Shown: positions 7,397 through 50,751, counted from the first letter of the stretch. The stretch: 64,000 bases of DNA from an uncultured virus (IMG/VR IMGVR_UViG_3300020148_000038) (IMGVR_UViG_3300020148_000038); one strand, 5' to 3'. The notes: generated by a model from the letters alone, not told the origin. Made by a program: numbers and translations.

Positions 7397-9775
7397 ATGA
7401 AAAGACATATGTTTGGTGATTCCGCCGAGAACTCCATCATGCAAACTATTACGATAGCTGTGTCGGCTATTCTTATTGCTGCTGGATTGGTCACCGCTCC
7501 GGGTCTAATCAACAATGCAAGAGATAACAACGCAAGAACCGACCTTGCCAATATCGCTTATGCGCAAGAGTTCTATCTTTCAACTACCGGGCATTACTAT
7601 GATGTCGATTACACCAATACATTCTTGACCATTGAACAAGAGATTGAATATTACTCCTATATGGGAGATGACACGAAAACAAAAGATGATGCTGTCAATA
7701 ATCTTCAATATCAAGCCAAGAACATAGGATTGAATGGATTGGGGACTTCTGTTGTCTTATCCGCAGATGATGTTGCAGGAGTTGCTTTCACTTTGTCCGG
7801 TGATGTATCTGGACACGCTGTTGAAACCTGTGCAGACACTCCTTACTATCTATTAAAAGACCAATCTGCTTCTGGAACTTGGTTCTATCGAGGTTCCGGT
7901 TCGGCAAAGATTTCCTCTAACTACTGGGATATATACAACAGCATCCCTTCGGAAGTCTTTATGTCTTGTGGTGGATTCGGTGATTACTTTGAAGAGGGCG
8001 GAAGTGGAGATTACACTCCACCGTGGAACGTAGACGACCCAATTCAGGTTACTTACACATTTGATATATCTGCTCAGGGTGCTTGTTATCACTATGACGA
8101 ATCAGACCCAGATCTAGGCGATTATGTAAGCACATCTTGTAACTTCTCTGGATATTCAGAACAAACCCAGGCAGAAGTTAATGCTCTAGGTCCAGCGGCT
8201 AGTTATGTTTATGCTTCGCAGGGGACAAATTGGTGGTACTACCAAGACCTCATTTCCGGTTGGTACTACGATGATGAAGGCGAGAAGCACATCATGGATG
8301 GTTTCTCAAACTGGAATTCTGCTTCTCTTTCATATAGTCCCTCTCAAAACCTGCTATTCACTAATTTTGGTACTTGGTGGGACACCATAGATTATGAGCA
8401 ATCGAATTATGATGATTTGGTATATGGAAGTGCAGAATTTGCCCAAAACGGTGGAGAGATTAAAGTCGCCATGTATGAACAGGATAGCTATACATACATC
8501 GGCGCGGCACTTCTCGTATTCAAGCCAATTGCGGGCAACAGTCCTGAATGGCCAGCTTGGGGAGGATACCCAGAGTTATTCGATGTTCAAACTCCGGAAG
8601 AACCTGAAGCGCCATCTGCATGGACTAGCACTTATATAGATTCTGGTCGGTTTAACGGCTTCACCAACTTCAAAGATGTTGTTTACAGCCCTATCACCGA
8701 CACTTATGTAACGTGGAGCGAAGACGCACTTACTAGCGCGCAGAGAGCTATATATCCACAACCAGTGCCCATCTTTGCATCAAATGATGGAGAGAATTGG
8801 AGCCAAGTTTCGGGACTGCCAGACTGGATTGGTTCGTCAACTGTCACAGATATTGGTTATGGAAATGGCGTCTTCATGTTGATAACCAACAGACAGAAAA
8901 GCTGGATGGATGGATTTGATTACCATGACGGAATCACAAAAGGATACAAACTTGCCGACTACAATACAGCCGCCAATGCATTCACTTCCACAGATGGACT
9001 GAACTGGTACGAAATTTCATTGCCAGATGTTCCAGTAACTCTTGGTTCCAATTTTTATACAGATGGAACCTATTGGAGCCAGATTAACTTTGTTGATGGA
9101 GAACTCACCATTTCCGGTACTAGAGGTGGGCAATACTCAAGTAGTTATTGCTCCACAAGGACTTCTGCTGATCAACCTTATGTTGACGACCCGAGAATTG
9201 CAGTTTGGAATGGTGGAAGCTCGTGGAGCGTCCACGATTTGAATGGAGTTCCCAGTTCAGAAGGAAGTTTGTGTGCATTGCATCCTAAGAACATAGCATA
9301 TGGAAACGGGGTGTATGTAGGCACTGTAGGACAAAGTGTTATGTATTCCTACGATTTAATTAACTGGAGCAGCAGCAATATTAATGGCGAAGCTGGAACA
9401 GCAGCCAGAAACGTCAGAGATAATGAGTCTATTGTCGTATTTGCTAATGGAACTTTCGTGATTGGCGACAGCTTCGACGGGTCTAATAGAGGCGTCGTAT
9501 ACTCCAATGATGGAATTAATTTCCAGTCGGTAGGTTTCTCTAACGCCTGTACGCCTACATCCATAGTTTATGCAGGCGATGAGTTTGTAACATTGGGTGG
9601 AGATGCAAGTTGTAACCAAAAGTCTCATAGCTGGTCTTCATCAGATGGAGCAACTTGGACTCAAACATTAGATGATCAATTGAGATTTGGCGCTTTCAAC
9701 AGCATGACTTACGCAGAAGGACACCTCTTCGCTATCAATAAAACTGGTGATACCATTTACACTTACGAAGTGTAA
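7397..9775 (+). CDS. Pilin-like N-terminus family copy 1; C-terminal Asp-box beta-propeller-like domain
   Basis: AENSIMQTITIAVSAILIAAGLVTAPGLINNARDNNARTDLANIAYAQE; Asp-boxes SNDGENW, STDGLNW, SSDGATW; start after GAAGGA RBS. Confidence 0.85.
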   Translation: MKRHMFGDSAENSIMQTITIAVSAILIAAGLVTAPGLINNARDNNARTDLANIAYAQEFYLSTTGHYYDVDYTNTFLTIEQEIEYYSYMGDDTKTKDDAVNNLQYQAKNIGLNGLGTSVVLSADDVAGVAFTLSGDVSGHAVETCADTPYYLLKDQSASGTWFYRGSGSAKISSNYWDIYNSIPSEVFMSCGGFGDYFEEGGSGDYTPPWNVDDPIQVTYTFDISAQGACYHYDESDPDLGDYVSTSCNFSGYSEQTQAEVNALGPAASYVYASQGTNWWYYQDLISGWYYDDEGEKHIMDGFSNWNSASLSYSPSQNLLFTNFGTWWDTIDYEQSNYDDLVYGSAEFAQNGGEIKVAMYEQDSYTYIGAALLVFKPIAGNSPEWPAWGGYPELFDVQTPEEPEAPSAWTSTYIDSGRFNGFTNFKDVVYSPITDTYVTWSEDALTSAQRAIYPQPVPIFASNDGENWSQVSGLPDWIGSSTVTDIGYGNGVFMLITNRQKSWMDGFDYHDGITKGYKLADYNTAANAFTSTDGLNWYEISLPDVPVTLGSNFYTDGTYWSQINFVDGELTISGTRGGQYSSSYCSTRTSADQPYVDDPRIAVWNGGSSWSVHDLNGVPSSEGSLCALHPKNIAYGNGVYVGTVGQSVMYSYDLINWSSSNINGEAGTAARNVRDNESIVVFANGTFVIGDSFDGSNRGVVYSNDGINFQSVGFSNACTPTSIVYAGDEFVTLGGDASCNQKSHSWSSSDGATWTQTLDDQLRFGAFNSMTYAEGHLFAINKTGDTIYTYEV
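7538..7605 (+). repeat. 68-bp exact repeat shared with 27319-27386
   Basis: ACCGACCTTGCCAATATCGCTTATGCGCAAGAGTTCTATCTTTCAACTACCGGGCATTACTATGATGT in pilin-like copies 1 and 4. Confidence 0.85.
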
Positions 9776-9819
9776 ATATCGTCGCCTCATGATTTAATTT
9801 TAGCGAAAGAAGGTCAATT

Positions 9820-10290: not shown

Positions 10291-10293
10291 ACA

Positions 10294-10929: not shown

Positions 10930-10987
10930 AGCTAGATTGTATCCAAATCCATCTGCGGTGTTGCCGGAAATGGATTCAATGTTCTCT

Positions 10988-11008: not shown

Positions 11009-11028
11009 TTCTTGTAGAGAGGTTAATA

Positions 11029-13431: not shown

Positions 13432-13638
13432 CTTGTGAAGTGAGATAAGAGTGTTCAAAGGGTCACGTAAATATGGTAGGCGTGCTGTTTAGATCCGTCA
13501 GAATGTGTTGACCTTTTCTTCTGTCAAGTTGAAAGTTTCCATAAATGCCGTATTTCCGCTGGCGACGAAAAATGTGAGTTTTCGGAATAGTCTATTTGGT
13601 GTCATGGCGAGTCGCGGACTACAATGGTGGCGTTCTTT

Positions 13639-13659
13639 GTCGGGGTCTTACGATATTAT
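13639..13659 (+). promoter_or_regulatory. GTC-class promoter (GTCG-N11-TATTAT), leaderless
   Basis: 6 nt before ATG 13666. Confidence 0.65.
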
Positions 13660-13665
13660 TGTGGT

Positions 13666-14292
13666 ATGAAGCGCGATCACCTCATCCCTAAATCAATTGT
13701 TGACAAGAACGGACATAAGCGTACTGTCAAAGTGAAGCCTAATGGCGGCAATGCCATTGTCACCCCAATCAGAGGCGGGTCTGTCCCTCCCACGCCTGCA
13801 CGTGAGGCGGTTTCGTTGGCAGAACGAATCAAAGACAGCGACGTTGAACTTAAGCGCTCTGTTGCCGCTCACCCTTCTTTAAGCGCCGAGATTGCTGAAG
13901 AGCTAGCCAAGAGTTCTGATTTCGACGTACTGAAAAATCTTGCAGAAAACCCTCGCACCCCACTTCACATTTTAGAGGGACTGGCACAAAGAAATACCGT
14001 CAACTTGTCCGTAGTTGATAACCCTAGTTCTTCGCTTCGTATTTTGCGAAGCGTGAAGAATATGAATGCCTTTGATTCAGCTTCGCACGATGCTTTTTCT
14101 GCGATTGAGGATAGATTTCCTCAGTTGAAGGATGCAGAGACAGAAGAGGATAGGGAGCGAATCGCTGGCGATCCTAACGCTACACCCTATGAACTAGCAG
14201 ACTTGTCTCGTGATGCTTCATTAAGGGTTCGTCAGGCTGTTGCTGATAACCCAAGTACGCCAATGTATGTTCTCAACAACATGCCTGCCTAA
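13666..14292 (+). CDS. DKNG-leader protein with LRV/HEAT-like repeats
   Basis: MKRDHLIPKSIVDKNGHKRTVKVKP; LAENPRTP, IAGDPNATP, VADNPSTP repeats; start re-assigned from 13624. Confidence 0.85.
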   Translation: MKRDHLIPKSIVDKNGHKRTVKVKPNGGNAIVTPIRGGSVPPTPAREAVSLAERIKDSDVELKRSVAAHPSLSAEIAEELAKSSDFDVLKNLAENPRTPLHILEGLAQRNTVNLSVVDNPSSSLRILRSVKNMNAFDSASHDAFSAIEDRFPQLKDAETEEDRERIAGDPNATPYELADLSRDASLRVRQAVADNPSTPMYVLNNMPA

Positions 14293-14325: not shown

Positions 14326-15699
14326 ATGAAGACTGCAAACACAATACCCACAACGATTGTGGATAAAAACGGAAAGAAGACAACTGTTCATGTAAACCCT
14401 CATAATTATTTCGCGAACGTTGGACGAACGAGGGGTCAGGTTGCCCCCATAGTTGGTGCGAATAAGTCTATTTCTGATTTGCTTGAAGAGCGTGCTTTAC
14501 TACATCTCAATATCAATCGAAATGTAGAGAAAATGGATAAAGACACGCTAGTCCGTAAAATTGAGCAAAGGAAGCGGTTAGACGAAGCAATAGAAGAGCA
14601 GCTATCTTCTTTATCAAGGGATGATTTCGATGAACCGGCAGAGTTGGATATCGTTATAGATTCTCATTTCGTAGACGAAGGAGTAACAAAACCTCGGTGG
14701 CATGACCAAGATATCGTTGTTGTGGGACAAAAGAGAAAGCTTGGTGAGGTATCCGGTGGGAAACTATTTCACGGTTCTCCGACCAAGATTGATGTTGGTG
14801 GGCTTATCTCCCCACAAGAAGAACGCAACTTCAAACAATCTTCCGATTCCGCGATAAGCATCACTTCTGATGTTGGCATGGCCGCACATTGGGCAAGAGA
14901 GGCTGCTAAGCCCAAGGACGACGAAAACAGCGTCTACATTTATGAGATAGAACCAACCGGCGAAGTTGAGGGCTGGCGTATCGGGTTGGCAAATCAGGGA
15001 AAGAATATCACTCTGATGGAAGGCAGGACACCATCAGGGAAGATTATCGCTGTGCACGAAATAGGGATGTCGGGCGAGGTGAAACTAGAAGACGCTCCCG
15101 CTAATGTTCGCTACGGATACAGCAATCTACTTTCCGACATAGATGAACAACGTGACAAACTGATTGATGATGCCATAGAGGTTTCTCGTGCATGGATTGA
15201 TACATGTTCGTCCGCCGAGATATCTGCACTGAGAGATTACACAAACAGTAGTGATGAATATGCTATCAAAAGTACATCAGGCAAACTTTCTCAGAAATGG
15301 ATTGATTTTGAATCTGCTGTTGACCGCGCACCACGTTTGAAAGAGACTTTCGTCTCCTATACGGGAGTCAATTCGTACTATGTCAACAACATACTTTCTC
15401 AGGCGGAAAACGGTGAGGTAGATATAGATCGCGTTCTTTCCTCTTCGCTTAATCCTGCACAGGTGAATGGTTTTGCTACTTCTGATGAATACGGTCGCAC
15501 ATTGGCTTTAGAGGTTGAGACGAACAAGGGTGCTTTCATGGATATCGTAAGCCATTCTCCGCACGAGATGGAGGTTATGCTGCCCAAAGGTAAATACGAG
15601 GTCATCGAGGTGCTAGAAGATGTCACTTATCTTTGGGGACGAGAGAAGGGTTTTGGGCGAACGATTGATAAGGTTCTTAGACTTCGTTTTGTGGACTAA
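14326..15699 (+). CDS. DKNG-leader protein with two ADP-ribosyltransferase-like domains
   Basis: Leader IPTTIVDKNGKKTTVHVNP; domain 1 LFHGS..ISITS..AAHWA..VYIYEIEPTG (Arr-like); domain 2 ALRDYT..YTG..LSSS..HEMEVMLP (VIP2/Alt-like ExE). Confidence 0.7.
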   Translation: MKTANTIPTTIVDKNGKKTTVHVNPHNYFANVGRTRGQVAPIVGANKSISDLLEERALLHLNINRNVEKMDKDTLVRKIEQRKRLDEAIEEQLSSLSRDDFDEPAELDIVIDSHFVDEGVTKPRWHDQDIVVVGQKRKLGEVSGGKLFHGSPTKIDVGGLISPQEERNFKQSSDSAISITSDVGMAAHWAREAAKPKDDENSVYIYEIEPTGEVEGWRIGLANQGKNITLMEGRTPSGKIIAVHEIGMSGEVKLEDAPANVRYGYSNLLSDIDEQRDKLIDDAIEVSRAWIDTCSSAEISALRDYTNSSDEYAIKSTSGKLSQKWIDFESAVDRAPRLKETFVSYTGVNSYYVNNILSQAENGEVDIDRVLSSSLNPAQVNGFATSDEYGRTLALEVETNKGAFMDIVSHSPHEMEVMLPKGKYEVIEVLEDVTYLWGREKGFGRTIDKVLRLRFVD

Positions 15700-16002
15700 T
15701 TAATTCCACAAGTGCCCTTTTCTTGCGAAACTGGCTATCAATATCCTATTTGTAACCACTTTTGGGGCAAACCGACCGACCGGTATGTTTTAATTGTCAT
15801 TAAATATGTGGTTGCATAGATACATATTCTTTAACTGGGGCGACCCACCAATAGGAGTGTAAATATGCAATTGGCGCTTTAGCTATTGACTAATGCATGT
15901 CGATTCATACATAAGACCCTAGGTTGGGGTACAAAATGAGTGCCGATAATTGAATTTAATTTTAGAAACATGGTTACATGGATAGTAAGGAGCTATTCAC
16001 AA

Positions 16003-18855
16003 ATGACAAATGACAAAGCCGAAAACTCGATAATGCAGACTATCTCAATTGCCGTTTCCGCAATTTTGATTGCTGCTGGACTTGTTACCGCGCCCGGTTT
16101 GATTAACAACGCGCGAGACAATAACGCACGCACCGACCTTGCGAATATCGCTTACGCACAAGAATATATCTTGGGCGTACAAGGAAAGTATTTCGATGGT
16201 GAATACGTCACCATCGAACAAGAGATGGATGGTGAGGGCATTACCAAGGCAGAAGCAACCAATAACCTCCAATACCTTGCATCTACCGAAGGCTTGAATG
16301 GATTAGGTACTTCTGTAGCGCTTGCTGACTCCAATGGTGGTGTTGCTTTCTCCGTTTCTGGTGATGTTTCAGGATGGGCTTCTACGGTTTGTGATACAGA
16401 ACCTTATTTTGTCATCAAAGCTCAGTCTGGCTCTGGTAAGTGGTTCTATCGTGGTTCTGGCTCTGGTTTGACTTCATCTAACTATGCCGACATCTATTCG
16501 AAAATTCCCTCTAAGGTATTTTCGGGATGTTCGAGCTTTGGTAGTGACTTCGAGGAAACTGACGGACAGAGCAACGAGCCTACTATCTGTGACACTACAT
16601 CTGACGGTTTGAAGGCTAACCCATCCATTTGGGATGCTGGTTCTTCTAGACTTGTTGATGGCTACGGCGGACAGTTGACCAGCGAATTTGGTGACGCGCT
16701 TGATCTTTCCCAACTCGATCAATACATGCCAGCACATTCAACCGTTGCAAAGGATGGAACCACATGGCAGCCAGGTCCGCAGACCGACCCGGATGATGTA
16801 TTCTTCTGTATCGGTAACGATTTGGTTCCTCACACCCTTGGAAATGAAGGATTCACTGTTAACGATTTCAGTTCAATGAGTGGACCTGTTCAAACTTATA
16901 TAGGCAACAACTTTAAGTTGTGTGAGGGTTGGGCATCGACCATGAACGCTTGGGCGCGCGACGGTAAGATGATTATGATGTTCGATGGTGTGCCAAACGT
17001 CTACTCATTGAGCACCGATTATGACCCAGTTTCTCCTATGGCTGGTGACCCCGGCTACCCCGCTTCATGTGCTGAAGAGGACTTGAGCAACGTTGATCCA
17101 GAATGCGCCTATTCTGGCGTCCCTGTCTCTTTGAATGGTAGCGGTGACCACATATACGGCTGGAGTCTTACTGCGCAAACAAGCTACCCAGTCAATCCAA
17201 ATGTTGAGCCTTACGCCACCTATCTTCCATTCCTAGCGGATGCAGAACCGGGCGTGGGTGATTACAACGTCACGGATTTGAAGTTATGTATCGAGGGAGA
17301 GCTTGTTCAGAATGTAACTTATGACGAGTATTCATACGCCACAAGTTATGTTGATATGGGCGGACCCGGACAGTTATATCTCAATGAACTGCTGTTCGAT
17401 GGAATCTCCAACGAGCGTATGAATGCGTTCGGAAACAGCGGAAAGATCATTTTCCACATGAATAATGGCGCGCAAAATGTTCTCGATATCAGAGGATCTG
17501 GTGAAGAAATTTCTCCGTTGGATGACGGGCTTCCATCTACACCGATAGCGCCAGATTGTTCTGTTGGAACAAATTATGCTGAACAGTACGGCGGAAACGG
17601 TCCTTACAACCCATCATCAGGTTACACCATTATTCACGGTGAATACAATATGACATCGAGCAGTTGGTTGTCGTTCTCCTGTTCGGGATACCCGATTCCG
17701 GAGATGACGGTAAGCGGTAACCTTCCTTCCTCCGCTATGAATTTGAATCAGCCATCTTCATGGTATGAAACGATGAACTATTCGTTAGATTTCCCATCAC
17801 AGGGTGCTCTAGAGGCGGATACTCTTTACGAGTTCCAAGTAACCTTCACCAATTCTGCTGGTTCATGGACTTCGGATGAATACACCCAAACAGTCAACGG
17901 TTGGGAATCTAAGAGTGTTCAGGCTTCTGGAAGTGTTGTAGGTATTACCGGAGACGGTGAGACGTTATTCGTTCAGAAAGCGGATGGCGTTTACGAATGT
18001 CCTGCTGCCTTCTTTGGAAATTGCGAAACCGGTAGGATTTCCACTTCTCCACAATCTAGAGTATATAGTTCTGATTCGACTTTGTTCGGTTATGTTGTGA
18101 GAACGTTTAGCGACAACAGCATCTCTCACTCTCGTCTTGCCGGAATGAACACAACGCTCTCTGGTATCGGTTGTGTTTACGATAACGACGCCAGAATTGA
18201 TGTTTCAAATAACGGAGAAACTGTTACCGTAGTATGTAAAAACTCTTCAGGTGCTCCAACATTGCACGTTTGGCAAAGTGGAGCGGGCTGGTTGACAAGA
18301 ACCCTACCAAGTGGATACAGCATGCAACTTGGTTATCACCACGTTGATGTTGCAAATGCGTCATTTATGGCGACTATGGTCGGGAACACCATCTACCTGA
18401 GTCATGATGGTGGCGTAAGCTGGAGTGCAAGCAGAACCATTTCCGAAAGCTTCTCTGGTGGTGACGCTTGTGTATTCGACACAACAAACTACAGCGGAAA
18501 TGTTGCGGCCTTCAGTTGTTACAGCAATTCCCGAAGCTATGTATATGTTACCTATGACGGTGGTACTACCTGGCTCAAGAACTCCTTCATGGGCAAGGCA
18601 TATTCACTTTCTGTAGATGATGAGAGAATCAACATCACCGACCATAGCGGAAACATCTACACAGGAGATCATGTATACCGTGGCTGGACTCCTGCCGATA
18701 GCTACTACGCATCAGCGTTCAACACTTGGACAACAAACCATCTTGGTGGCGTAAGCAACTTCGCATACGTCGGCAAGACTGGTGGTGTAATGCTTAGGTC
18801 TTCTGGAAGCAATGCATACATCGTATTTGAGTGGAGCGACCCAAGCCTAGTATAA
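16003..18855 (+). CDS. Pilin-like N-terminus family copy 2; duplicated middle domain, Ig-like and Asp-box C-terminus
   Basis: Conserved AENSIMQT..AYAQE; start after AAGGAG RBS; SHDGGVSW, TYDGGTTW. Confidence 0.85.
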   Translation: MTNDKAENSIMQTISIAVSAILIAAGLVTAPGLINNARDNNARTDLANIAYAQEYILGVQGKYFDGEYVTIEQEMDGEGITKAEATNNLQYLASTEGLNGLGTSVALADSNGGVAFSVSGDVSGWASTVCDTEPYFVIKAQSGSGKWFYRGSGSGLTSSNYADIYSKIPSKVFSGCSSFGSDFEETDGQSNEPTICDTTSDGLKANPSIWDAGSSRLVDGYGGQLTSEFGDALDLSQLDQYMPAHSTVAKDGTTWQPGPQTDPDDVFFCIGNDLVPHTLGNEGFTVNDFSSMSGPVQTYIGNNFKLCEGWASTMNAWARDGKMIMMFDGVPNVYSLSTDYDPVSPMAGDPGYPASCAEEDLSNVDPECAYSGVPVSLNGSGDHIYGWSLTAQTSYPVNPNVEPYATYLPFLADAEPGVGDYNVTDLKLCIEGELVQNVTYDEYSYATSYVDMGGPGQLYLNELLFDGISNERMNAFGNSGKIIFHMNNGAQNVLDIRGSGEEISPLDDGLPSTPIAPDCSVGTNYAEQYGGNGPYNPSSGYTIIHGEYNMTSSSWLSFSCSGYPIPEMTVSGNLPSSAMNLNQPSSWYETMNYSLDFPSQGALEADTLYEFQVTFTNSAGSWTSDEYTQTVNGWESKSVQASGSVVGITGDGETLFVQKADGVYECPAAFFGNCETGRISTSPQSRVYSSDSTLFGYVVRTFSDNSISHSRLAGMNTTLSGIGCVYDNDARIDVSNNGETVTVVCKNSSGAPTLHVWQSGAGWLTRTLPSGYSMQLGYHHVDVANASFMATMVGNTIYLSHDGGVSWSASRTISESFSGGDACVFDTTNYSGNVAAFSCYSNSRSYVYVTYDGGTTWLKNSFMGKAYSLSVDDERINITDHSGNIYTGDHVYRGWTPADSYYASAFNTWTTNHLGGVSNFAYVGKTGGVMLRSSGSNAYIVFEWSDPSLV

Positions 18856-18935: not shown

Positions 18936-21416
18936 ATGGATACATTTATAAAAGGGAATTATTTGAGAATGCTTAGTGATAGAGCCGAAAACTCCATCAT
19001 GCAAACTATCTCTATTGCTGTTTCCGCGATCCTTATCGCGGCGGGACTTGTGACAGCACCAGGATTGATTAACAATGCCCGCGATAACAATGCCCGCACC
19101 GACCTTGCGAATATCGCTTATGCACAGGAGTACATTTTGGGTGTTCAAGGCAAGTATTTCGACGGCGACTATATCACAATAGAGCAGGAGATGACAGGAG
19201 ATGGCGTGTCCAAGGCTGAGGCAACCAACAACCTTCAGTATCTTGCATCTAATGAAGGTTTGAACGGATTAGGAACGTCCGTCTCTATTGCTGATAATTC
19301 GAGCGGTGGGGTGGCGTTTACTGTTTCCGGTGACGTTTCTGGACATGCTTCTATAGCCTGTGGTACAGAACCGTACTTTATTATCAAGGCTCAATCTGGC
19401 TCTGGTAAGTGGTTCTATCGTGGATCTGGTTCCGGTCTAACCTCGTCTAATTATTCTGAAATCTACCAAAATATACCTTCAAAGGTATTTGCCGAGTGTT
19501 CGGACTTTGGAAGCGGATTTGAAGAAACTAATGACCAAGGCGATGACCAAGATAATGAGCCGACCGTTTGTGACACCGCTCCTGAAGGATATCCTCTTAC
19601 GGAGACGCCTAATGTATATGACTACAGCATGTGGGGCGAGCAGGAGTACGGCTACGGTATTAGCATTAACTCCGACACAACCAACCTTCCGGTCGATACT
19701 GAAACAGAAGAATTTAAGACCAATCTACCTTCTTATGAGTTTGTGACCAAAAGCAATGGCACTGTCGGTAAGTGGATGGAACCTGAAGATATATTCTTCT
19801 GCATCGGTGATGAATTGGTTCCTCATAAATTAGCATATACCGGTGAGGACTACTATTACCAGGATTATGTCGCTGGTGGTGGCCCGTTGCAACTCCAAAT
19901 CACAACGGGGTGGGAACTCTGTGATGGATGGCCTTCGGCTATGAACGAATGGTGGCAGAACGGACGAATGATTGTTATGTATAACGGTCAGCCTAACGTA
20001 TTCGCTATGAAATTCACTCAAGAACCAATTAGCGCGCTTGCTGGTGACCCAGGATACCCGGCTTCCTGTGAGAACGCCTCTCCGACCCCAAGCGGTCCAC
20101 CGGCTCCAACGAACTTACCGAGCATCGAGAACTTCTCCAACTACTCGGAAGACCCCGATCACAGTCAGGGATGGCTGTATCACGGAGTTAAGAATGATAC
20201 CAACACAGCCGCAGCATTCTGGATAAATTACGCGGACACCGTAACAGTTGACGGCGATCTTCCAGGTAATGTTGAACTAACCCTAGGGTTCGATTTCGGT
20301 GATGGTGAACAGGTTTGGTATCTAACTGGTGACACAGATATCTCCGAAGCTGGGGTTTACCCCATCACGATTACGGCAGAGAATACCCTGGGATCAGTAC
20401 AACACCAAGTTGACCTCAAGGTGGTTGGGTGGGAACCTCTAGTCTCAACCAGTTACGAGAGTGGAATGAGCGTAGAGACAGCATCATCAAACGGTTCGGT
20501 TGTCATTGATAGAAGTTGGCGTCGTCACACTGCTGGAACGTCAGTTCAACTGAACCCGCCTGCTGGCACGAGATTCTTGTATGCCTTCATGAGCGACAAT
20601 GGAAGTATTGTGACAGCCGTTGTTCGCGATGATACAACAGAGTGGTACAGAGATGTCTACCTAACAACATCACTCGACGGAGGCTACACATGGGGTTCCT
20701 TGAACCAAATATGTAACACGAGTAGTTCTTGTGGTCCGACACGTGGACACGTTTCTAATGACGGCGATATTACGCTATGGCCGACAAACGGTTCGTCTAT
20801 CTATTACTCGGACGATAACGGCTTTAGCTGGGATATAAGGACAGTCCCCGGTGCCGGTGCCCATAAGCTTGCGGTTTCGGAAAATGGAGACGTTATCGCT
20901 CAGGTTCGCATCTCAGGGAGCACCGGTTACTTCGAAACCAGTTCTGACGGCGGCGTTACATGGTCACAGGTTGGACCCTCCAATGGGACGAATGTCATCT
21001 CATCCAATGTCGTGATCGCGGTCGATAACCTCGGAAATGTTCTGTACGCTCACGGTACAGGTGGAGGTGGTATCTCCTGGGGATACCTATCTACCAATGT
21101 CAGCAAAACCGAAACTAATCAGATGTTCACTGGCGATGCCATCAGCAGTAGTGGGATTGACCTACCAGGCACAAACAACGAGCTGTACTGGGTGAGCGGC
21201 GTAAGCCTATCCGGAGACGGCAAGATTGCGACGATTCTCACTCCTGGGTACATTTGGACCAAGGCTATGGAGTCCACCAGATCATCATCGTACAGCAGTT
21301 CCGCCGCTACGGGGTGGGTCGCTACCCCACTCGGGGACTACGCGAACACGACGCTGGTTCACCTTAGCGGACGCCACGTTGTAGTCGATGGGCAACAATT
21401 CATCTGGAGAGAATAA
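18936..21416 (+). CDS. Pilin-like N-terminus family copy 3; Ig-like and Asp-box C-terminus
   Basis: Conserved N-terminus; GDLPG..LTG..AGVYPITITAENTLGS Ig-like module; SLDGGYTW, SDDNGFSW, SSDGGVTW. Confidence 0.85.
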   Translation: MDTFIKGNYLRMLSDRAENSIMQTISIAVSAILIAAGLVTAPGLINNARDNNARTDLANIAYAQEYILGVQGKYFDGDYITIEQEMTGDGVSKAEATNNLQYLASNEGLNGLGTSVSIADNSSGGVAFTVSGDVSGHASIACGTEPYFIIKAQSGSGKWFYRGSGSGLTSSNYSEIYQNIPSKVFAECSDFGSGFEETNDQGDDQDNEPTVCDTAPEGYPLTETPNVYDYSMWGEQEYGYGISINSDTTNLPVDTETEEFKTNLPSYEFVTKSNGTVGKWMEPEDIFFCIGDELVPHKLAYTGEDYYYQDYVAGGGPLQLQITTGWELCDGWPSAMNEWWQNGRMIVMYNGQPNVFAMKFTQEPISALAGDPGYPASCENASPTPSGPPAPTNLPSIENFSNYSEDPDHSQGWLYHGVKNDTNTAAAFWINYADTVTVDGDLPGNVELTLGFDFGDGEQVWYLTGDTDISEAGVYPITITAENTLGSVQHQVDLKVVGWEPLVSTSYESGMSVETASSNGSVVIDRSWRRHTAGTSVQLNPPAGTRFLYAFMSDNGSIVTAVVRDDTTEWYRDVYLTTSLDGGYTWGSLNQICNTSSSCGPTRGHVSNDGDITLWPTNGSSIYYSDDNGFSWDIRTVPGAGAHKLAVSENGDVIAQVRISGSTGYFETSSDGGVTWSQVGPSNGTNVISSNVVIAVDNLGNVLYAHGTGGGGISWGYLSTNVSKTETNQMFTGDAISSSGIDLPGTNNELYWVSGVSLSGDGKIATILTPGYIWTKAMESTRSSSYSSSAATGWVATPLGDYANTTLVHLSGRHVVVDGQQFIWRE

Positions 21417-27180: not shown

Positions 27181-28770
27181 ATGCTTAAGCTCAAAAACGA
27201 ATATGCCGAAAACTCCATCATGCAGACCATCACTATTGCTGTATCCGCAATTTTGATTGCGGCAGGACTTGTTACGGCACCCGGTCTTATCAATAATGCG
27301 CGCGATAATAATGCACGTACCGACCTTGCCAATATCGCTTATGCGCAAGAGTTCTATCTTTCAACTACCGGGCATTACTATGATGTTGACAACACCACTA
27401 CATTTGTGAGCGTTGAGCAGGAGCTTGCCTATAACGTTGAGCATGGAGACGGTCTGCTTACCAAGCCGAACGCTGTCAACAATTTGCAGTATGTGGTAAG
27501 CAACTCTGGTGTTGGACTATCCACTTCTGTTGAAGCTGATAGCCAGGGTGTTTCTTTTTCGCTTTCTGGTGATGTGACGAATCATTCTATTCAGACATGC
27601 TCTGATAAGCCATACTATTTGCTTCGCGATCAGTCCGCATCCGGTAAATGGTTCTATCGCGGTTCTGGTTCTGCTGATGTCAGTGCCGATTTCTCCAAGA
27701 TAGTCAACGCTATCCCGGCTGCCGTTCTTGCCGAATGCCCAACTCTGGGAGATGGCTTTGAAGGTGAGCCGGTAGACGGCACCCCAGGTGGAGATGATGG
27801 CAACGAAAATGAATTGCCATCTGATTACATTACCGCTAATTCATGGGATCGTCCGTATCTGTTCACTGTTCATGCCAGTAGTACAGATACTCCGGTTGAT
27901 GACCTTCCTTGGGTTCAACAGCTTGAATACACTCCTGGCGATATATGGTGGCCAGAGTCTACTACGGTTGAAGATCTAGAAGTTTTTGCTGGTGATTCAG
28001 AAGTGGATTACCTAACGGGAGATGACTTTGTTTTCTCCTACCATTCGATTGAAGACGATAGTTACATCAGTTTCTTGGATTTGATTATTTTCGATGCTGC
28101 TTTGGATGAATTGGATTTCAATGGCGACCTTGCCAACTTCTTAATAGATGGTTGGGTAACAGCTACCGTTGATGGTGTTCCCGGAAACTCCATCCATATC
28201 ACCTTAGACGCCGATGATTTGGCAAGCTCGGGAATAATAGGAAACCCGAATGCAGGACTCAACCAAGCCAACGCTGTTCATTCTGCATACACCAGAGGCG
28301 GACTTCCTTTTGGTTATCTAGATGAATATGAAGATTTCATGGTTAGCAACAACTTTGATTCTATGAACAACGATAAGTTCGCTTACGATGCCGGACAGAA
28401 TGCCAGATTGGGCAACATGAACCTTGGTACTGCCGAGATTATCAGTATCGTGGGAGATGATGGCGCTGTTTATAGCGTGGATATGAGTTCGGGTTATGCC
28501 ATGTTCGGAAAGGTAGGCAAGACCGTTGAGAATGAAGTTGAATTCGATTTCAGAATCAGACTAGAATCCAATTTCTCCGACTACATAAACGGTGATGTTG
28601 ATTATCTCACTGACTACATCCCGTTTGGTTCTAGTGGATTCACACTTCGCGACTCCAGCAATAACGAAGTTGACATATATGAATTCGAAGCATCATATGT
28701 TCAAATTCGCTTCCCTGGTGCATCACAACCAATGTGGATTGCAATTCACGAAATAAACATGTGGACTTAA
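27181..28770 (+). CDS. Pilin-like N-terminus family copy 4
   Basis: Conserved N-terminus; acidic C-terminal domains shared with copies 5 and 6; ends PGASQPMWIAI. Confidence 0.88.
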   Translation: MLKLKNEYAENSIMQTITIAVSAILIAAGLVTAPGLINNARDNNARTDLANIAYAQEFYLSTTGHYYDVDNTTTFVSVEQELAYNVEHGDGLLTKPNAVNNLQYVVSNSGVGLSTSVEADSQGVSFSLSGDVTNHSIQTCSDKPYYLLRDQSASGKWFYRGSGSADVSADFSKIVNAIPAAVLAECPTLGDGFEGEPVDGTPGGDDGNENELPSDYITANSWDRPYLFTVHASSTDTPVDDLPWVQQLEYTPGDIWWPESTTVEDLEVFAGDSEVDYLTGDDFVFSYHSIEDDSYISFLDLIIFDAALDELDFNGDLANFLIDGWVTATVDGVPGNSIHITLDADDLASSGIIGNPNAGLNQANAVHSAYTRGGLPFGYLDEYEDFMVSNNFDSMNNDKFAYDAGQNARLGNMNLGTAEIISIVGDDGAVYSVDMSSGYAMFGKVGKTVENEVEFDFRIRLESNFSDYINGDVDYLTDYIPFGSSGFTLRDSSNNEVDIYEFEASYVQIRFPGASQPMWIAIHEINMWT

Positions 28771-32459: not shown

Positions 32460-34130
32460 ATGTTGCGTAATGATGCAGCCGAGAACTCAATCATGCAGAC
32501 CATCACTATTGCTGTTTCGGCAATCTTGATTGCTGCTGGTTTGGTTACGGCACCAGGACTTATCAATAATGCGCGCGATAACAACGCCAAGACCGACTTG
32601 GCTAATATCGCCTATGCGCAATCCTTTGTTCAGGGTATTTCTGGACAATACTATGCTGTGGACGGCGAAAATACATTCATCACTATTGGTCAGGAAATGG
32701 CTGAAACGGGAGCTTCGAGAGCGGAGGCGGTTAACAACCTCCAGTATGTTGCAGAGAACCTTGGATTGAATGGTTTAGGAACCTCTGTTGCTCTTGCTGA
32801 CGACAGAGGTGGTGTGTCAATCACACTCTCTGGCGATGTTACCGGACATATCGCAGCAACTTGTGACACATCTCCTTATTTCTTGCTGAAGGCTCAATCT
32901 GATTCCGGTAAGTGGTTCTACCGTGGTTCAGGTTCAGCATTGACCTCTTCTGATGTGAATGACATTCTCTCTGAAGTTCCATCTAAGGTAACCACTGCAT
33001 GTCCTAGTTTTGGTGATGGATTCGAAGAAACCGAAGGTAGTGATCCTGGCAACGACGATGATGAAACTCCTGTGGTCGTTCCTGACTACGCGAACTATGC
33101 GATTACCAACAGTGTAGAGGCTACATCTTATAGCGGCGCACCAATTCCCGAGCTTGAAGATGGAATAATTCTAACTACCTGGGATCTAGGTGCTGACAGG
33201 TTGCCTTGGACATTAACGCACTCGGAACCCGAGAGCGAAACTTGGGCATCAATTGTTTCTGATGTGGAAATTATCATTGCCAATCATGCATACACTGATA
33301 TTAATTCAGGAGAAATAGAAGTATTCCATTACCGTGGCGAGTTGGATGACGAAGGAACTTATATGGTGGGACTTTCTGAATCCGCTGTTCTCAAGCTAGT
33401 AGATGACGGAGCTTTGTATGATTTTGTTACTGACGGATGGATTTCCTTAACCCTCGATGGGGTCGAGGACAATGTTTTGAGAAACGAAATCAGTAATGAA
33501 TCGATGATTGACTACTTATACGAAGATCTCAACATTCCGTTACCACCTGACCCACAAATGGGTGGAAGTATCAACACTCCTATGCGTGGTAACTATGGAA
33601 TCTTCTGTACTGAGGGTATGTCTTCAAACCCCAACACTACATGGTGTCCAAACCCCGTCAATTCACACAGCGAGCTATTCATTACCAATTACACATGGCA
33701 GAATGGTTCTTGGTCGAGTAGATACAACGGCTCGCCATATGACAGAGTTCTTCCGTCCAGAATGGGAGACGGCTCTGGTGAGGTTCAGGTTCTCTCTGCC
33801 TACGCAGAAGTCAATGGTGGAGCAAAGGAACAGGTTCAGATTGTTCTCGATAACGGTTACGTCTTCTATGGCGCTTCCAACCATGATTACACATGGGACG
33901 AAGAGGCTGCTAATGCATTCTGGTTCGAGATTAGAAGTGAATCTAACCTTACTGTGGGAACCGATGGTCAATTCGATGACCGACATTTCGAAATACTTGA
34001 CATGAGCAACAACAGTCTTATTGATTCGGGTATAGAGAATGTGATCCTGACCGATGTGCAGGTTATGATGCCTGGCGCAACTCAGCCAATGTGGATTAGA
34101 ATTAGCTGGGGATTCCCGGTTACCGTCTAA
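32460..34130 (+). CDS. Pilin-like N-terminus family copy 5
   Basis: MLRNDAAENSIMQT..; AAGGAG RBS; ends PGATQPMWIRI. Confidence 0.88.
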   Translation: MLRNDAAENSIMQTITIAVSAILIAAGLVTAPGLINNARDNNAKTDLANIAYAQSFVQGISGQYYAVDGENTFITIGQEMAETGASRAEAVNNLQYVAENLGLNGLGTSVALADDRGGVSITLSGDVTGHIAATCDTSPYFLLKAQSDSGKWFYRGSGSALTSSDVNDILSEVPSKVTTACPSFGDGFEETEGSDPGNDDDETPVVVPDYANYAITNSVEATSYSGAPIPELEDGIILTTWDLGADRLPWTLTHSEPESETWASIVSDVEIIIANHAYTDINSGEIEVFHYRGELDDEGTYMVGLSESAVLKLVDDGALYDFVTDGWISLTLDGVEDNVLRNEISNESMIDYLYEDLNIPLPPDPQMGGSINTPMRGNYGIFCTEGMSSNPNTTWCPNPVNSHSELFITNYTWQNGSWSSRYNGSPYDRVLPSRMGDGSGEVQVLSAYAEVNGGAKEQVQIVLDNGYVFYGASNHDYTWDEEAANAFWFEIRSESNLTVGTDGQFDDRHFEILDMSNNSLIDSGIENVILTDVQVMMPGATQPMWIRISWGFPVTV

Positions 34131-35147: not shown

Positions 35148-35687
35148 ATGTCAAGCAAACCAACGATTCTTTTAGATGTTGACGGAGTTGTCAACATAGT
35201 CAACAGTCGTGAAGAGGCGGCAAGATTGTGGGATGGGAAAATTATCACACAATATATCGAGCACACCGAGGATCGTAGGGGTAATAGTGGCTATACGGTT
35301 AACATTGCTACGGATGTCATCAACACTCTCAACTTCCTGAATGAATTGGGCGGCATCGAGGTTAAGTGGCTCACCACGTGGGTTCACAACACCAAAGAAC
35401 TATGCACTCTTGGTGTTCCCGATTTCTATTTCTTGGAGCGACCTGTCCACGAGTCCGATAATTGGTGGAAGTGGGATGTCGTCAAAAATCTTGTTTCTAC
35501 GCTCGATGAAGATACCCCTATTCTCTGGATAGATGACGAGCACGGCTACGATCCAAACGTTGTAAGATGGCTGCTTACCGATCCGGCAGCAGAAAGTATT
35601 GAGGTTATCTCCCCCGACACTTTTGAAGGTCTTACTCCAGAGCATCTTTTGCGTATTCGCAAATGGGCTACTTCGCAGATTCCCTGA
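35148..35687 (+). CDS. HAD-superfamily phosphatase (Swiss-Army-Knife RNA-repair HAD type)
   Basis: LLDVDGVVN, WLTTW, K, LWIDD, GLT motifs. Confidence 0.85.
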   Translation: MSSKPTILLDVDGVVNIVNSREEAARLWDGKIITQYIEHTEDRRGNSGYTVNIATDVINTLNFLNELGGIEVKWLTTWVHNTKELCTLGVPDFYFLERPVHESDNWWKWDVVKNLVSTLDEDTPILWIDDEHGYDPNVVRWLLTDPAAESIEVISPDTFEGLTPEHLLRIRKWATSQIP

Positions 35688-42793: not shown

Positions 42794-43807
42794 TTACCTC
42801 TTGACTACGGCGAACTCTACATTTCTTAGGGACTCCAAGGTGTTCCCTCCAGCGTAGGATACCGAGCTTTGCAAGTTCTCCTTGATGGTATTCAGCGTGT
42901 CATCCAAAGCGCCCTTGTGTGGGATAAGCTCACGCTTTCCTTCTACGTGCTTGCTTTCGCCCTTCTGGAACTCTGACGCGCTGCCGAAGAACTCTTTGTA
43001 ATTCTCGCCGTCAACATTCACGAACTCGCCGGGGCTTTCGTCATGGGCTGCGAACATTCCACCGATCATCACCATATTCGCGCCGAAGGCGAGGCTCTTG
43101 GCTATGTCTCCGTAGTTCCTAATTCCACCATCTGCGATGATTTCTACATCGGAATCCGCCAGTGCCTCAGCGATGTAGAAAACGGACGATAGCTGCCATC
43201 CTCGACTTCCGAAGCCGGTGTTAGGGGCTGTCAAACAGACGCTACCCGGTCCAACGCCCACCTTAACAGCATCGACGCCAGCCTCTTCTAGTCTCATTGC
43301 TCCGTCTACAGTAGCAACATTTCCACCGATGACGTAAGTCTCGGGAAGGTTCTCCTTGATGTACCTCACCATCTTGAAGACTTCCTGGCTGTCACCGTGC
43401 GCGACATCCACCGTGATGTATTCTGGCTCCACGCCTTCCTCTACGAACCTGTTGACCGTGTGGTAGTCAGCAAGCTTGATTCCCAGTGATACCGAAGCGA
43501 AAAGACCTTTCTCCTGCATCCTCTTCGTGAACTCCACAGCGTCTACATCGAATCTGTGCATGACATAGAACAGGTTGCGTGAGGCGAGGAACATACAGGT
43601 TCTCTCATCAACAATGGTTGACATGTTTGCGGGGATGATTGGAAGGTCGAATACTCTACCTCCGAGGCTCATCGATACATCGACTTCCGATCTGCTTTTG
43701 ACGATACATTCGCGGGGGATGAGGATTACGTCGTCGTAATCGAAGAACGCCGGATCGCAAAGTTCGGATCTTTCGTAGAGTCTAGGAAAAGATGAGCTGT
43801 TTGACAT
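42794..43807 (-). CDS. guaC: GMP reductase (short, CBS-less type)
   Basis: FDYDDVILIP..SRSEVD, PANM, YVMHRFD, VAHG, KVGVGPGSVC, IIADGGIR, FGSASEFQKGE..VEGK, LQSSVSYAGG. Confidence 0.92.
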   Translation of the reverse strand: MSNSSSFPRLYERSELCDPAFFDYDDVILIPRECIVKSRSEVDVSMSLGGRVFDLPIIPANMSTIVDERTCMFLASRNLFYVMHRFDVDAVEFTKRMQEKGLFASVSLGIKLADYHTVNRFVEEGVEPEYITVDVAHGDSQEVFKMVRYIKENLPETYVIGGNVATVDGAMRLEEAGVDAVKVGVGPGSVCLTAPNTGFGSRGWQLSSVFYIAEALADSDVEIIADGGIRNYGDIAKSLAFGANMVMIGGMFAAHDESPGEFVNVDGENYKEFFGSASEFQKGESKHVEGKRELIPHKGALDDTLNTIKENLQSSVSYAGGNTLESLRNVEFAVVKR

Positions 43808-45442: not shown

Positions 45443-45478
45443 TAGATGCTAGAATCTCTTCCAAGGAGAGCTTCTGTT

Positions 45479-45970
45479 ATGGGCAAGTATATTATTATCG
45501 ACATCGATGGTGTGTTGAATCCTTTCTATGCCCGGTACTCACAACTAGAGGGATTTACTGAATACAGCGCGCAGAAGTATTCGGCGTTCTTGAATAAAGA
45601 GTTGATAACTTCTTGGTTCAAAAAGTTCAAGGATGCTGATGTCAATCTTGTTTGGGGTAGCGCCTGGTTTCAAGAATCCAACCTTATTCTTGAAATGCTC
45701 GACATGGATGAGAAGTGGGAGTGCATCAAGATATCCACAGAAGACGTAGGCTTGGGAACTTGGAAGATTAAGTCTATTCGTGGGTGGGTAGAAGACAATA
45801 CATCTCCTAACGACCTTCTTGTTTGGATTGATGACGAGCTAGAAGAAGATGCTTTCTTATGGGCTGCCGAAAGAGGCAACATGCTTGCTATCAAACCTGC
45901 CAAGGAATCCGGTTTGGGTGAAACAGACTTTCAGGAAATCTGGGATTTCCTAGAGAGTCGTTCTGAGTGA
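45479..45970 (+). CDS. HAD-superfamily phosphatase (SAK-HAD type)
   Basis: IIDIDGVLN, WGSAW, WK, VWIDD, GL; AAGGAG RBS. Confidence 0.85.
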   Translation: MGKYIIIDIDGVLNPFYARYSQLEGFTEYSAQKYSAFLNKELITSWFKKFKDADVNLVWGSAWFQESNLILEMLDMDEKWECIKISTEDVGLGTWKIKSIRGWVEDNTSPNDLLVWIDDELEEDAFLWAAERGNMLAIKPAKESGLGETDFQEIWDFLESRSE

Positions 45971-45971
45971 T

Positions 45972-48954: not shown

Positions 48955-49182
48955 GTTAATGACCTTTCATCACTTGCTTTTGAGCAAGACAATATCATCT
49001 GTTGTTGAGTTAAATCGCATTTTAGTCAATTTGATGTTTTGGCTGTTCGGGATGTGCAAATTTCTTTTCATATTTAATGTGATTTCGCATGTAACTTGTT
49101 TTGGGTACATATTGCTCCCCCATTTTTTCAATCTAGTTAGGAAACATTGTTACTCTATTTAGACAACTAACAGGAGTCCTCT

Positions 49183-50751
49183 ATGTTTTATTTGAAAGAT
49201 GACCGAGCCGAAAACTCGATCATGCAAACAATCACTATAGCTGTCTCAGCTATCCTTATCGCGGCTGGTCTTGTAACTGCTCCGGGTCTTATTAATAATG
49301 CTCGTGACAATAATGCCAAGACCGACCTTGCGAATATCGCCTATGCGCAAGAGTTTGTTCTTAGCGTTCAAGGTACATACTTTGATGGTGAGTACGTCAC
49401 CATCCAGCAAGAAATGGACGGTGAAGGCGTCACTAAAGCCGAAGCTGTCAACAACCTTCAGTACATAGCTCAGAATGCTGGTCTAAGTGGACTAGGAACT
49501 TCTGTTGCTGTTGCAGATGAACAGCAGGGCGTTTCCTTTACCCTTTCGGGTGAGGTCACCAATCACACAATGGAAACCTGTGAAGCTGTTCCTTACTATC
49601 TCTTGAAGGACAAGTCTGCATCTGGTAAGTGGTTCTATAGAGGTTCGGGAAGCGCCGACACTTCTAGCGACTTCTCGCAGATTGCTAATGGAATCCCAAC
49701 TAAGGTTCTGGATGCTTGCCCTGGTTTCGGCGGTAATTTCGAAGAAGCTGGCGGAAACAGTGGTAACCCAAGCGATCCTGGAAATGATGATGAAGCGCCA
49801 TTCACTGATTACTCCAATGCGGACTACCTAGATATGTGGGGCGGAACCGTTATCGTCAGCACTGAGGATATTGCTGATGTAGCCCAGTTCCCTTGGAAGA
49901 ATGGACTCTCTTTGGGTGAAGGACACGAAGGTGTTCTTACTGATATTCAGGCGTTCGCTGGTGGAACCGATATTTCATCAGAGTTCACAAATATTAGCTC
50001 GGGCACAATAGCCTACTACTATGATGATGACACCGACGAATATCCACCATTCGTAGAATTTGATTTTGATATAAATGACCTCCTTGGATTGTTTGATTCT
50101 GGTAACATTCGCGACTTCTTTACCGATGGTTGGTTTAGCGCTACTATTGACGGAGTTCCGAATAATACCATGCGCATTCAGTTGGACAGTGATACCGTAA
50201 ACAGTGTTCTTGGATTGGGTGACCCCAACATTGGCTCCGATCAAGCACACGCTCCATACGCAGCTTATGATGCGTATGGACGTCCATACGGAATGACGGT
50301 TACATTCGAAGATTTCATCTTCGGAACCAACATACCATACAACAACAACATGTTTATGTATGACTCAGGTCAAGATGCTCGTCTTGGAAACATGGAGTTC
50401 GGTGAGGCGCAAATCCTTAGTGTAATTGACTCTAACGGTGATAGCTACACAATAGATCTCAATCCTGGATATGGTTTCTATGGACAGGTTGAAGTCACTT
50501 ATGACGGAAGAGTAGATTTCAGTTTCCGTATTCGTTCCGACAGTGACCCAGAGACAAATTCGTATGATGCAGATGAGTTCCCCAGTGGATTCCGTATCTT
50601 GGATTCGTCTAGCGTAGACCAACGTTCAGAGTTGCTGTGGCCAGACTCCTATGATGTACCTGCCTTGGAAGACGGTTACTTGGAAGTTCTACTACCAGGC
50701 GCTACAGAGTCGTTCTGGCTGAAGATTAAGTCTCCTGTAGTACCAGCATAA
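49183..50751 (+). CDS. Pilin-like N-terminus family copy 6
   Basis: MFYLKDDRAENSIMQT..; C-terminal domains related to copy 4. Confidence 0.88.
   Translation: MFYLKDDRAENSIMQTITIAVSAILIAAGLVTAPGLINNARDNNAKTDLANIAYAQEFVLSVQGTYFDGEYVTIQQEMDGEGVTKAEAVNNLQYIAQNAGLSGLGTSVAVADEQQGVSFTLSGEVTNHTMETCEAVPYYLLKDKSASGKWFYRGSGSADTSSDFSQIANGIPTKVLDACPGFGGNFEEAGGNSGNPSDPGNDDEAPFTDYSNADYLDMWGGTVIVSTEDIADVAQFPWKNGLSLGEGHEGVLTDIQAFAGGTDISSEFTNISSGTIAYYYDDDTDEYPPFVEFDFDINDLLGLFDSGNIRDFFTDGWFSATIDGVPNNTMRIQLDSDTVNSVLGLGDPNIGSDQAHAPYAAYDAYGRPYGMTVTFEDFIFGTNIPYNNNMFMYDSGQDARLGNMEFGEAQILSVIDSNGDSYTIDLNPGYGFYGQVEVTYDGRVDFSFRIRSDSDPETNSYDADEFPSGFRILDSSSVDQRSELLWPDSYDVPALEDGYLEVLLPGATESFWLKIKSPVVPA

Follow-up and report, generated by a model that had tools for sequence, protein, structure and literature searches.

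The 64,000-nucleotide stretch of the uncultured virus IMGVR_UViG_3300020148_000038 (IMG/VR), here called the window, carries six paralogous genes between positions 7,397 and 50,751, whose products share an almost invariant, pilin-like N-terminus and diverge in their C-terminal parts (termed heads). The reading that we prefer, with a probability of roughly 0.7, is that the six are modular minor pilins of a retractile type IVa-like pilus encoded by the element itself, and that their heads form a library of alternative adhesins. Each protein would then consist of a hydrophilic leader, a non-canonical class III-type signal, a pilin module of about 190 residues, an acidic linker and a head of its own.

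The six plus-strand open reading frames (ORFs) with a common N-terminus, which a preliminary description of the window had listed, are all present and begin where they had been placed (Table 1). Directly after a short leader all six carry the same 48-residue stem, AENSIMQTI[TS]IAVSAILIAAGLVTAPGLINNARDNNA[RK]TDLANIAYAQ. In each of the 15 pairs 46-48 of the 48 residues are identical at the protein level; identity of the DNA coding for the stem is no more than 76-85%, and synonymous sites differ at a proportion (pS, Nei-Gojobori, 15 pairs, 48 codons) of 0.49-0.79, which is near saturation. Because the stem DNA has diverged this far, the conservation is one of the protein and not the result of recent gene conversion. 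Long-standing purifying selection acts on the stem peptide and chance is excluded, in agreement with the strong selection claimed before. The approximately 150 residues following the stem are 56-68% identical to the first sequence of the alignment and contain two invariant cysteines as well as the motifs NNLQY and WFYRGSGS; this corresponds to the conserved domain of about 140 amino acids that had been described. Over their whole length the proteins are 33-37% identical, and their C-termini are divergent beyond the acidic linker (in pilin 1, the pilin module reaches up to about residue 215). All six mature proteins are acidic with an isoelectric point of 4.05-4.16.

A profile of the N-terminal 210 residues was searched against the 449 six-frame open stretches of at least 50 amino acids in the window. 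It recovered the six genes with E-values from 1e-107 to 2e-117 and no seventh paralogue at E <= 10; one extra, insignificant match (independent E-value 1.5e+02) lies inside the 15940-18852 ORF itself. Contigs matching the pilin genes came from a source-like run, from a low-depth, near-identical strain and from cross-matches between paralogues only. In an exhaustive HMMER profile search of 1.84 billion representative proteins 123 members of the family were found. A database protein of 1,340 amino acids (P0306), which consists of 23 near-identical repeats of about 57 amino acids and matched the hydrophobic part of the profile, looks like translated repetitive DNA rather than a relative.

To model the pilin module, AlphaFold2 (AF2) was run on residues 1-210 of the 27181 protein (pilin 4) with a 66-row alignment of relatives, resulting in a predicted local distance difference test (pLDDT) value of 85 and a predicted template modelling (pTM) score of 0.75. 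The model contains a continuous helix of 56 residues (8-63) and a three-stranded sheet (strands at 133-161), that is, the arrangement typical of pilins, in which an N-terminal helix of some 50 residues packs against an antiparallel beta sheet. The structural alignment against 48,161 PDB representatives returned type IV pilins and pseudopilins in all of rows 1-15 (Z 8.1-5.1), led by PilA4 of Thermus (6xxd_A; Z 8.1, root mean square deviation 3.3, 118 aligned), and the first non-pilin followed at row 16. Foldseek placed the same PilA4 chain at the top of its PDB matches (probability 0.94), at a non-significant E-value of 0.15. We argue for a pilin fold because the top of the list consists uniformly of pilins and pseudopilins, and not because of the Z score, since a Z of about 8 alone may reflect a common arrangement and is no proof. 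This comparison, which had been proposed for the first 200 or so amino acids, backs the type IV pilin alpha-1 architecture seen in the preliminary description, as does the machinery that accompanies the family in relatives.

The family fits the general definition of class III signal peptides, in which a short hydrophilic leader with Gly or Ala as its last residue precedes some 21 mostly hydrophobic residues (passages of PMC8179133). The junction was read in the 89 of 93 family proteins that fit a motif pattern, and the 93 had been gathered via shared words, so that the sampling favours the motif. In these 89 proteins position -6 is hydrophobic, -3 is Asp in 88, -2 is any residue and -1 is Ala in 84 and Gly in 5. 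Positions +1 to +8 read ENSIMQTI in 89 of 89, which places Glu at +1 and Met at +5; +7 to +24 are hydrophobic or small residues, followed by Pro25. The leaders have 6-10 residues including the Ala at -1, or 17 for the 18936 gene (pilin 3) from its first ATG; an alternative start at 18969 would give this gene the leader MLSDR-A. The weakest of the 123 members show relaxed junctions, for example RDRA/ATDPILV (a slash marks the junction). The canonical N_methyl motif (PF07963, TIGR02532, IPR012902) was not found at Pfam E <= 10 or NCBIfam E <= 1 in five proteins each, and the absence of the G(-1)/F(+1)/E(+5) signature that had been pointed out was confirmed. Although the canonical pilin motif is missing, the proteins agree with pilins in fold, in genomic context and in the general definition of the signal peptide.

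Canonical pilins of Microbacteriaceae, encoded beside PilC in genomes G183 and G147, read ...DDDG/FTLIELLVVV...NNAKDSS. If the family is assumed to be cut after the -1 Ala, then Ile4, Ile15, Leu16, Ala18, Gly26 and N29-N30-A31-[K/R]32-D33 fall into the register of these pilins, and this match independently supports the predicted cleavage site. The two groups are alike in register up to D33 and weakly through alpha-1C into the head, whereas they differ at +1 to +14 except for Ile4, with Phe1 replaced by Glu and Glu5 by Met, and in the position of the proline (+25 in the family, +22 in the Microbacteriaceae pilins). In a comparison with hhalign the family alignment matched a canonical Microbacteriaceae pilin with a probability of 61% and E 8e-5, with weak similarity extending into the head, and BLASTP of a short member of the family (the short pilin described below) against another canonical Microbacteriaceae pilin gave E 4e-5. 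Judged from these similarities the family probably arose from a type IVa pilin of actinobacteria whose N-terminus was rewritten.

In relatives the family is accompanied by assembly genes. A conserved operon is present in all three contexts seen (L002, which is part of the IMG/VR record G001; L022; and L023, where the contig ends ahead of the later operon genes). It encodes PilB-type and PilT-type ATPases and a PilC platform, which are the components of a type IVa machinery, together with a putative A24 prepilin peptidase and a short pilin whose N-terminus is that of the six window proteins (Table 1). Pilin, ATPase, platform and peptidase are therefore encoded together in each of the three related operons. 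The limits of the PilB clade are sharp: identity is 65-78% on the large contigs of the family and at most 54% elsewhere. GxGD is the second catalytic Asp motif of A24 peptidases; at 28.0 bits the L023 copy passes the Pfam Peptidase_A24 cut-off (26.5 bits). Because the peptidase is so short, there is no room for a methyltransferase domain. The system does not fit a Tad/Flp (type IVc) pilus, which has Flp pilins of about 50-70 amino acids with G/xxxxEY and an ATPase of the CpaF/TadA type: the shortest pilins here have 156-175 amino acids and no EY at +5/+6, and the PDB matches of the two ATPases, 26 for each, include no chain named CpaF or TadA. Some 6 kb upstream of PilB a conserved protein of about 195 amino acids is encoded (L022:3636-4232, L023:3396-3983), which has a sub-threshold match (E 5e-5 to 7e-5; 23.4-24.0 bits against a cut-off of 26.1) to Tox-PLDMTX, a papain-fold toxin domain; the gene next to it in L023 encodes a cREC_REC receiver domain.

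Part of the machinery is also present on a contig of 494,976 bp, which encodes a PilB of the clade (P0100; 65% identity, E 4e-214), a short pilin of 158 amino acids with the same stem (P0238), a divergent pilin (P0300) and two more long paralogues (P0010 and P0011). Assuming that this contig is that of the window, the element has at least 10 pilin genes.

Several points weigh against a pilus made by this element. The window itself has no T2SSE, T2SSF or Peptidase_A24 match among the 66 ORFs scanned, as had been noted before for pilus ATPase and peptidase. Its presumed link to the machinery is the equal length of 494,976 bp recorded for the contig with the window's pilins. Of the peptidases in relatives, the L002 copy scores 23.5 bits (ORF) or 25.5 bits (six-frame), both under the 26.5-bit cut-off, and the L022 copy has no Peptidase_A24 match at E <= 1e-4. 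The family lacks Phe1 and Glu5, which to our knowledge are near-universal in bacterial pilins. No Pfam or NCBIfam pilin family matches, with ComP_DUS sub-threshold in three of five proteins searched, and Foldseek gave no match of the pilin module at E <= 0.001 in PDB or BFVD. An adhesin role is backed by the type of domain for one of the six heads, and the head of pilin 4, modelled with AF2 from a 3-row alignment, gave a pLDDT of 46.7 and no usable model. Finally, there is no RNA run among the sequencing runs listed with the window's DNA.

With no machinery in the window, the paralogues might be thought to enter or block the type IV pilus of the host and thereby to alter adhesion or to exclude phages, as the preliminary description had suggested. 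Phage-encoded pilins that enter a host pilus and block tip-binding phages are documented (in passages of PMC12952977), an example being the FimU-like minor pilins of Pseudomonas prophages. For the six proteins described here we regard this as unlikely. The family is accompanied by its own PilB, PilT, PilC, peptidase and short pilin, and the invariant stem is identical to that of the element's short pilin and not to a host pilin. Moreover, the canonical pilins of two Microbacteriaceae genomes, taken in place of the actual host, have G/FTLIE and not A/ENSIM, so that the signals differ in the cleavage site as well as in positions 1-3 and 5-14. Given the operon in relatives and the PilB and short pilin on the 494,976-bp contig, we therefore prefer to read the six as minor pilins of an own pilus, and the second proposal made earlier, that the element builds its own filament, is the one that gains support.

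It is also quite unlikely that the proteins are membrane-anchored surface proteins, in which the helix serves as an uncleaved signal anchor or a Sec signal and tethers variable ectodomains without any filament. Such proteins would explain why a canonical prepilin motif and a pilin family match are missing, and cleavage is only predicted. However, anchors need hydrophobicity and not 48 invariant residues that reach 23 residues past the hydrophobic tract, the conserved globular part models as a pilin head, and the same N-terminus is found on a protein of 158-175 amino acids encoded directly after the A24 peptidase in the PilB-PilT-PilC operon.

The heads differ in kind. Only that of pilin 3 (18936 gene) contains domains that pass the Pfam cut-offs, BNR_2 (34.5 bits) and PKD (25.3 bits). 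The head of pilin 2 (16003 gene) has a single weak BNR match (E 0.013) under the cut-off, and its first 165 or so residues are 37-39% identical to their counterparts in pilin 3. For pilin 1, with a head of about 580 amino acids in which S-x-D-G-x-x-W/F repeats are visible by eye, no Pfam match was obtained. Those of pilins 4, 5 and 6 (27181, 32460 and 49183) form a family of their own of about 320 amino acids with 23-34% identity; for pilin 4 the ESM Atlas held no usable match, and the protein's own model there had a pLDDT of 0.36. In Pfam the heads of pilins 1, 4, 5 and 6 had no match. The Asp-box propeller and Ig-like domains read from the sequence earlier hold for one of the six heads, faintly for a second, and not for the other four. 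Should the heads be adhesins, the library would point directly to the cells or surfaces that these elements target.

Phage fibres, too, usually combine a constant N-terminus with a variable C-terminus, BNR and PKD domains are found in such fibre proteins, and IMG/VR lists a related contig as viral. Accordingly, the six might be receptor-binding fibres of a huge phage, docked on the baseplate with their N-termini and binding receptors with their C-termini, which we consider very improbable. None of the six matches any PHROG family (E <= 0.001), the N-terminal module has no BFVD match at E <= 0.001 and no fibre among the top rows, and a tblastn search of 50,697 phage records with the 7373-9775 protein gave nothing. 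A transmembrane-type helix preceded by a small residue is not a baseplate adaptor, and the 202-kb and 41-kb relatives gave no match to a capsid, portal or terminase. A non-pilin fold, a plain anchor or a virion fibre had been named beforehand as outcomes that would speak against pilins, and none of them was seen.

A pilus of the element might work as follows. Its short A24-family prepilin peptidase, which lacks the methyltransferase part, would cut after the Ala or Gly, and its PilC platform and PilB motor would build a filament mainly from the short pilin of about 160 amino acids. The large paralogues would be incorporated in few copies, with the tip as their most likely position, because their stem matches that of the main subunit in every letter; the large heads would also fit best there, as passages of PMC8179133 argue for modular pilins generally. 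A PilT-like motor would pull the filament back. The stem would be kept identical to that of the main subunit because the same peptidase, platform and helix packing have to be passed, leaving the heads free to vary. With one stem and one motor many binding heads (BNR propeller, PKD domain and unknown beta-rich domains) could be presented, and the carrier cell might seize more kinds of cells or surfaces. Owing to its rewritten signal, the system would stay separate from a host pilus that uses G/FTLIE.

Relatives are found on metagenome contigs of 805,269, 654,127, 637,428, 231,541, 204,992 and 140,196 bp and on smaller ones. The 654,127-bp contig includes G001, a record of 202,737 bp with the label provirus, and has 15 pilin-like proteins (clusters); five of these and PilB are encoded letter for letter in G001 and ten lie outside. 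A second IMG/VR contig (G002, 41 kb; L001, L005) has a G+C content of 66-67% and at least seven same-stem paralogues, five of them within 9 kb, and also encodes DnaE, DnaB, SNF2 and FtsK/SpoIIIE. Because of this relative, the family spans elements of 45-67% G+C. The alignment-based scan of viral contigs found relatives and the single-protein scan none; the scan with the PilB clade found G001 only, and a scan of metagenomes did not recover the window's own contig. With tblastn the pilin module had no match in plasmids, and PilB reached only about 24-31% identity in phages, several of the matches being in bacterial-looking records. Almost all members with context lie on very large unclassified contigs, which makes the family a marker for poorly known giant mobile elements.

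Whether these elements of 0.2-0.8 Mb are huge phages or giant and plasmid-like is at roughly even odds, and the view that the element is a phage, assumed at the outset, is not established. Resembling huge phages, G001 has 64 tRNA genes and a transfer-messenger RNA (tmRNA) in one 17-kb array (L014:7899-19701, L015:164-5841; about 64.9-81.8 kb of G001); all 20 amino acids are covered, one anticodon is unreadable and two rows repeat where the loci overlap. The tmRNA, with the tag ANASRNDFALAA, lies in the middle of the array. Ribonucleotide reductase, ThyX, RtcB and a CCA-adding-type enzyme point in the same direction, as do type I-E Cas3, Cse1, Cas7, Cas5 and Cas6e in G001 (L017:277-7760; no Cas1 or Cas2 among the scanned G001 ORFs of at least 153 amino acids), RNA ligase, RlaP, several HAD_SAK_2 proteins and DnaJ in the window, and the viral label in IMG/VR. 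Plasmid-like features are a VirB4-type AAA_10 ATPase, large FtsK/SpoIIIE proteins, ArdC, gyrase, DnaB, clamp and clamp loader; that 202 kb plus 41 kb of relatives gave no capsid, portal or terminase also fits this side. Terminase_6N, TerL_ATPase, Phage_capsid, TrwC and Relaxase had no match in G001 and G002 at E <= 0.01, and no virion family was found among 97 ORFs (PHROGs) or 135 ORFs (Pfam) of relatives. These negatives do not settle the type of element, since G001 and G002 are fragments. A cultivated megaphage also has TraC- and TraD-like genes (passages of PMC12484599).

The host is probably an actinobacterium. Single orphan copies occur in NCBI records named Lacisediminihabitans sp. FW035 and Frigoribacterium sp. 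9N, and one copy is located on a 3.3-kb contig of a Microbacteriaceae metagenome-assembled genome. The likeness to Microbacteriaceae pilins and the high-GC relative (66%) with at least seven paralogues are further hints. Limits to this assignment are that the family is present in only 1 of 401 Microbacteriaceae genomes, namely the metagenome-assembled one, that no PilB of the clade was found in that genome, and that the runs with the window's DNA, one of which may be its source, are labelled ant metagenome.

G001 encodes a DsbA-like thioredoxin (Thioredoxin_4) and a signal peptidase I (S26). Because the pilin module has two invariant cysteines and G001 a DsbA-like protein, the element may supply its own disulfide-forming enzyme. 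Interspersed with the ORFans of the window are genes of RNA-repair type. They code for a nucleotidyltransferase of the RlaP family, an RNA ligase and four proteins with a HAD_SAK_2 ('Swiss Army Knife' RNA repair) domain, two above and two below the Pfam cut-off, which suggests a heavy investment in RNA or tRNA repair. Further window genes code for a protein of 457 amino acids with a domain (Arr-ms; 28.4 bits, cut-off 25) that resembles rifampin ADP-ribosyltransferases, for two leucine-rich-repeat-variant proteins, whose genes lie immediately upstream of pilin genes, for a protein with a DnaJ domain and for an enzyme of the GMP reductase/IMPDH family; about 50 of the 66 scanned ORFs have no Pfam match. 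The six pilin genes have no clear motif in common over the 177 bases up to and including the Ala -1 codon, which comprise upstream DNA and leader codons, and a trial upstream motif had 1 match against 0.39 expected. A PafBC/RecA-NDp-type motif gave 5 matches in the window against 1.87 expected; 3 of 100 shuffles reach 5, none of the matches lies before a pilin gene, and the candidate was rejected.

Table 1. Candidate modular pilin genes and other genes of the window, and genes of the conserved operon in relatives.
Feature	Position	Strand	Length	Leader or details	Invariant stretch
Candidate modular pilin 1	7397..9775	+	792 aa	MKRHMFGDS-A	7424-7567
Candidate modular pilin 2	16003..18855	+	950 aa	MTNDK-A	16018-16161
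Candidate modular pilin 3	18936..21416	+	826 aa		18984-19127
Candidate modular pilin 4	27181..28770	+	529 aa	MLKLKNEY-A	27205-27348
Candidate modular pilin 5	32460..34130	+	556 aa	MLRNDA-A	32478-32621
Candidate modular pilin 6	49183..50751	+	522 aa	MFYLKDDR-A	49207-49350
Operon gene 1, PilB-like ATPase				closest PDB chains PilF/GspE/PilB, 6e-51	
Operon gene 2, PilT-like ATPase				closest PDB chains PilT/PilU, 4e-50	
Operon gene 3, PilC-like platform				closest PDB chain PilC of Myxococcus, 3e-15	
Operon gene 4, A24-type peptidase			231-257 aa	motifs TDFKDHRVPN and G[VA]GD[FL]K in all three copies	
Operon gene 5, short pilin			162-175 aa	N-terminus same as six window proteins	
Operon gene 6, second pilin				more divergent	
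Later operon genes, larger pilin-like proteins				junctions DRG/D.., D[RK]A/S.. and (L002 only) DRG/E..	
Operon region, lipoprotein				L002 and L022	
RNA-repair-type genes (window)	22877-23773 (-), 28792-29436 (-), 35148-35687, 45446-45970, 59863-60498 (+), 60510-61307 (-)				
Arr-ms, two leucine-rich-repeat-variant, DnaJ and GMP reductase/IMPDH genes (window, jointly)	14326-15699 (+), 6496-7254 (+), 13624-14292 (+), 1633-2244 (+), 42794-43807 (-)				
DsbA-like thioredoxin and signal peptidase I of G001 (jointly)	L013:11803-12651, L016:7512-8060				

Type IV pilins are recognised in genomes via the G-F-T-L-x-E motif, and annotation based on this motif misses a whole pilus system here, in a family without the Glu5 that is thought to be needed for subunit docking. 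A wider proposal, which is tentative and has somewhat less than an even chance, is that the family represents a self-contained branch of type 4 filaments with a private pair of signal and peptidase, located on probably actinobacterial elements of 0.2-0.8 Mb with 10-20 heads, which serves to seize partners for transfer or new hosts. If so, the private signal (Glu at +1, no Glu5, probably no N-methylation) would insulate the system from the canonical pilus of the host, so that nature would offer a case of two separate pilus systems within one cell, and multi-gene adhesin libraries instead of shufflons would set the partner range of giant elements. In our literature search, which did not cover all journals, no description of the family or of a complete pilus system on a huge phage was found; the passages on pili in PMC13282480, PMC12484599 and PMC12619734 concern other matters.

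The FimU-like and PilA-like pilins of prophages (Sztanko et al. 2026, PMC12952977, in part) are likewise encoded on mobile elements and diversifying. These pilins, however, are single genes, the products of which become part of the pilus of the host and protect against other phages; they come without motor, platform and peptidase and use the host's canonical signal. Modular type IV pilins are known from Streptococcus sanguinis, where PilB carries a vWA module and PilC a lectin module, and more than 1,200 modular pilins in 264 architectures have been reported, for which exposure at the tip is argued (Raynaud et al. 2021, passages of PMC8179133). Such modular pilins are defined via the canonical motif of IPR012902, that is Gly followed by F/M-T-L-x-E, and depend on PilD for processing, whereas this motif is missing here. 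In addition, the stem is invariant over at least 10 paralogues per element, and the genes are scattered on a giant mobile element and not placed in a chromosomal pil locus. The thin (type IVb) pilus of IncI1 and IncI2 plasmids and the PAPI-1 pilus are similar in that a mobile element encodes its own type IV pilus (PMC5430464, PMC9045228 and PMC5297154, each in part). In contrast to the IncI thin pilus, the motors described here resemble PilB and PilT of type IVa and not those of type IVb, the host is likely to be a monoderm actinobacterium, and the G001 and G002 fragments gave no relaxase match. A parallel to the heads is IncI PilV, also a minor pilin with a constant N-terminus, whose alternative C-termini set the partner cell (PMC5430464 and PMC9045228, in part); there a single gene is varied by DNA inversion in a shufflon, whereas here the variants are separate, complete genes.

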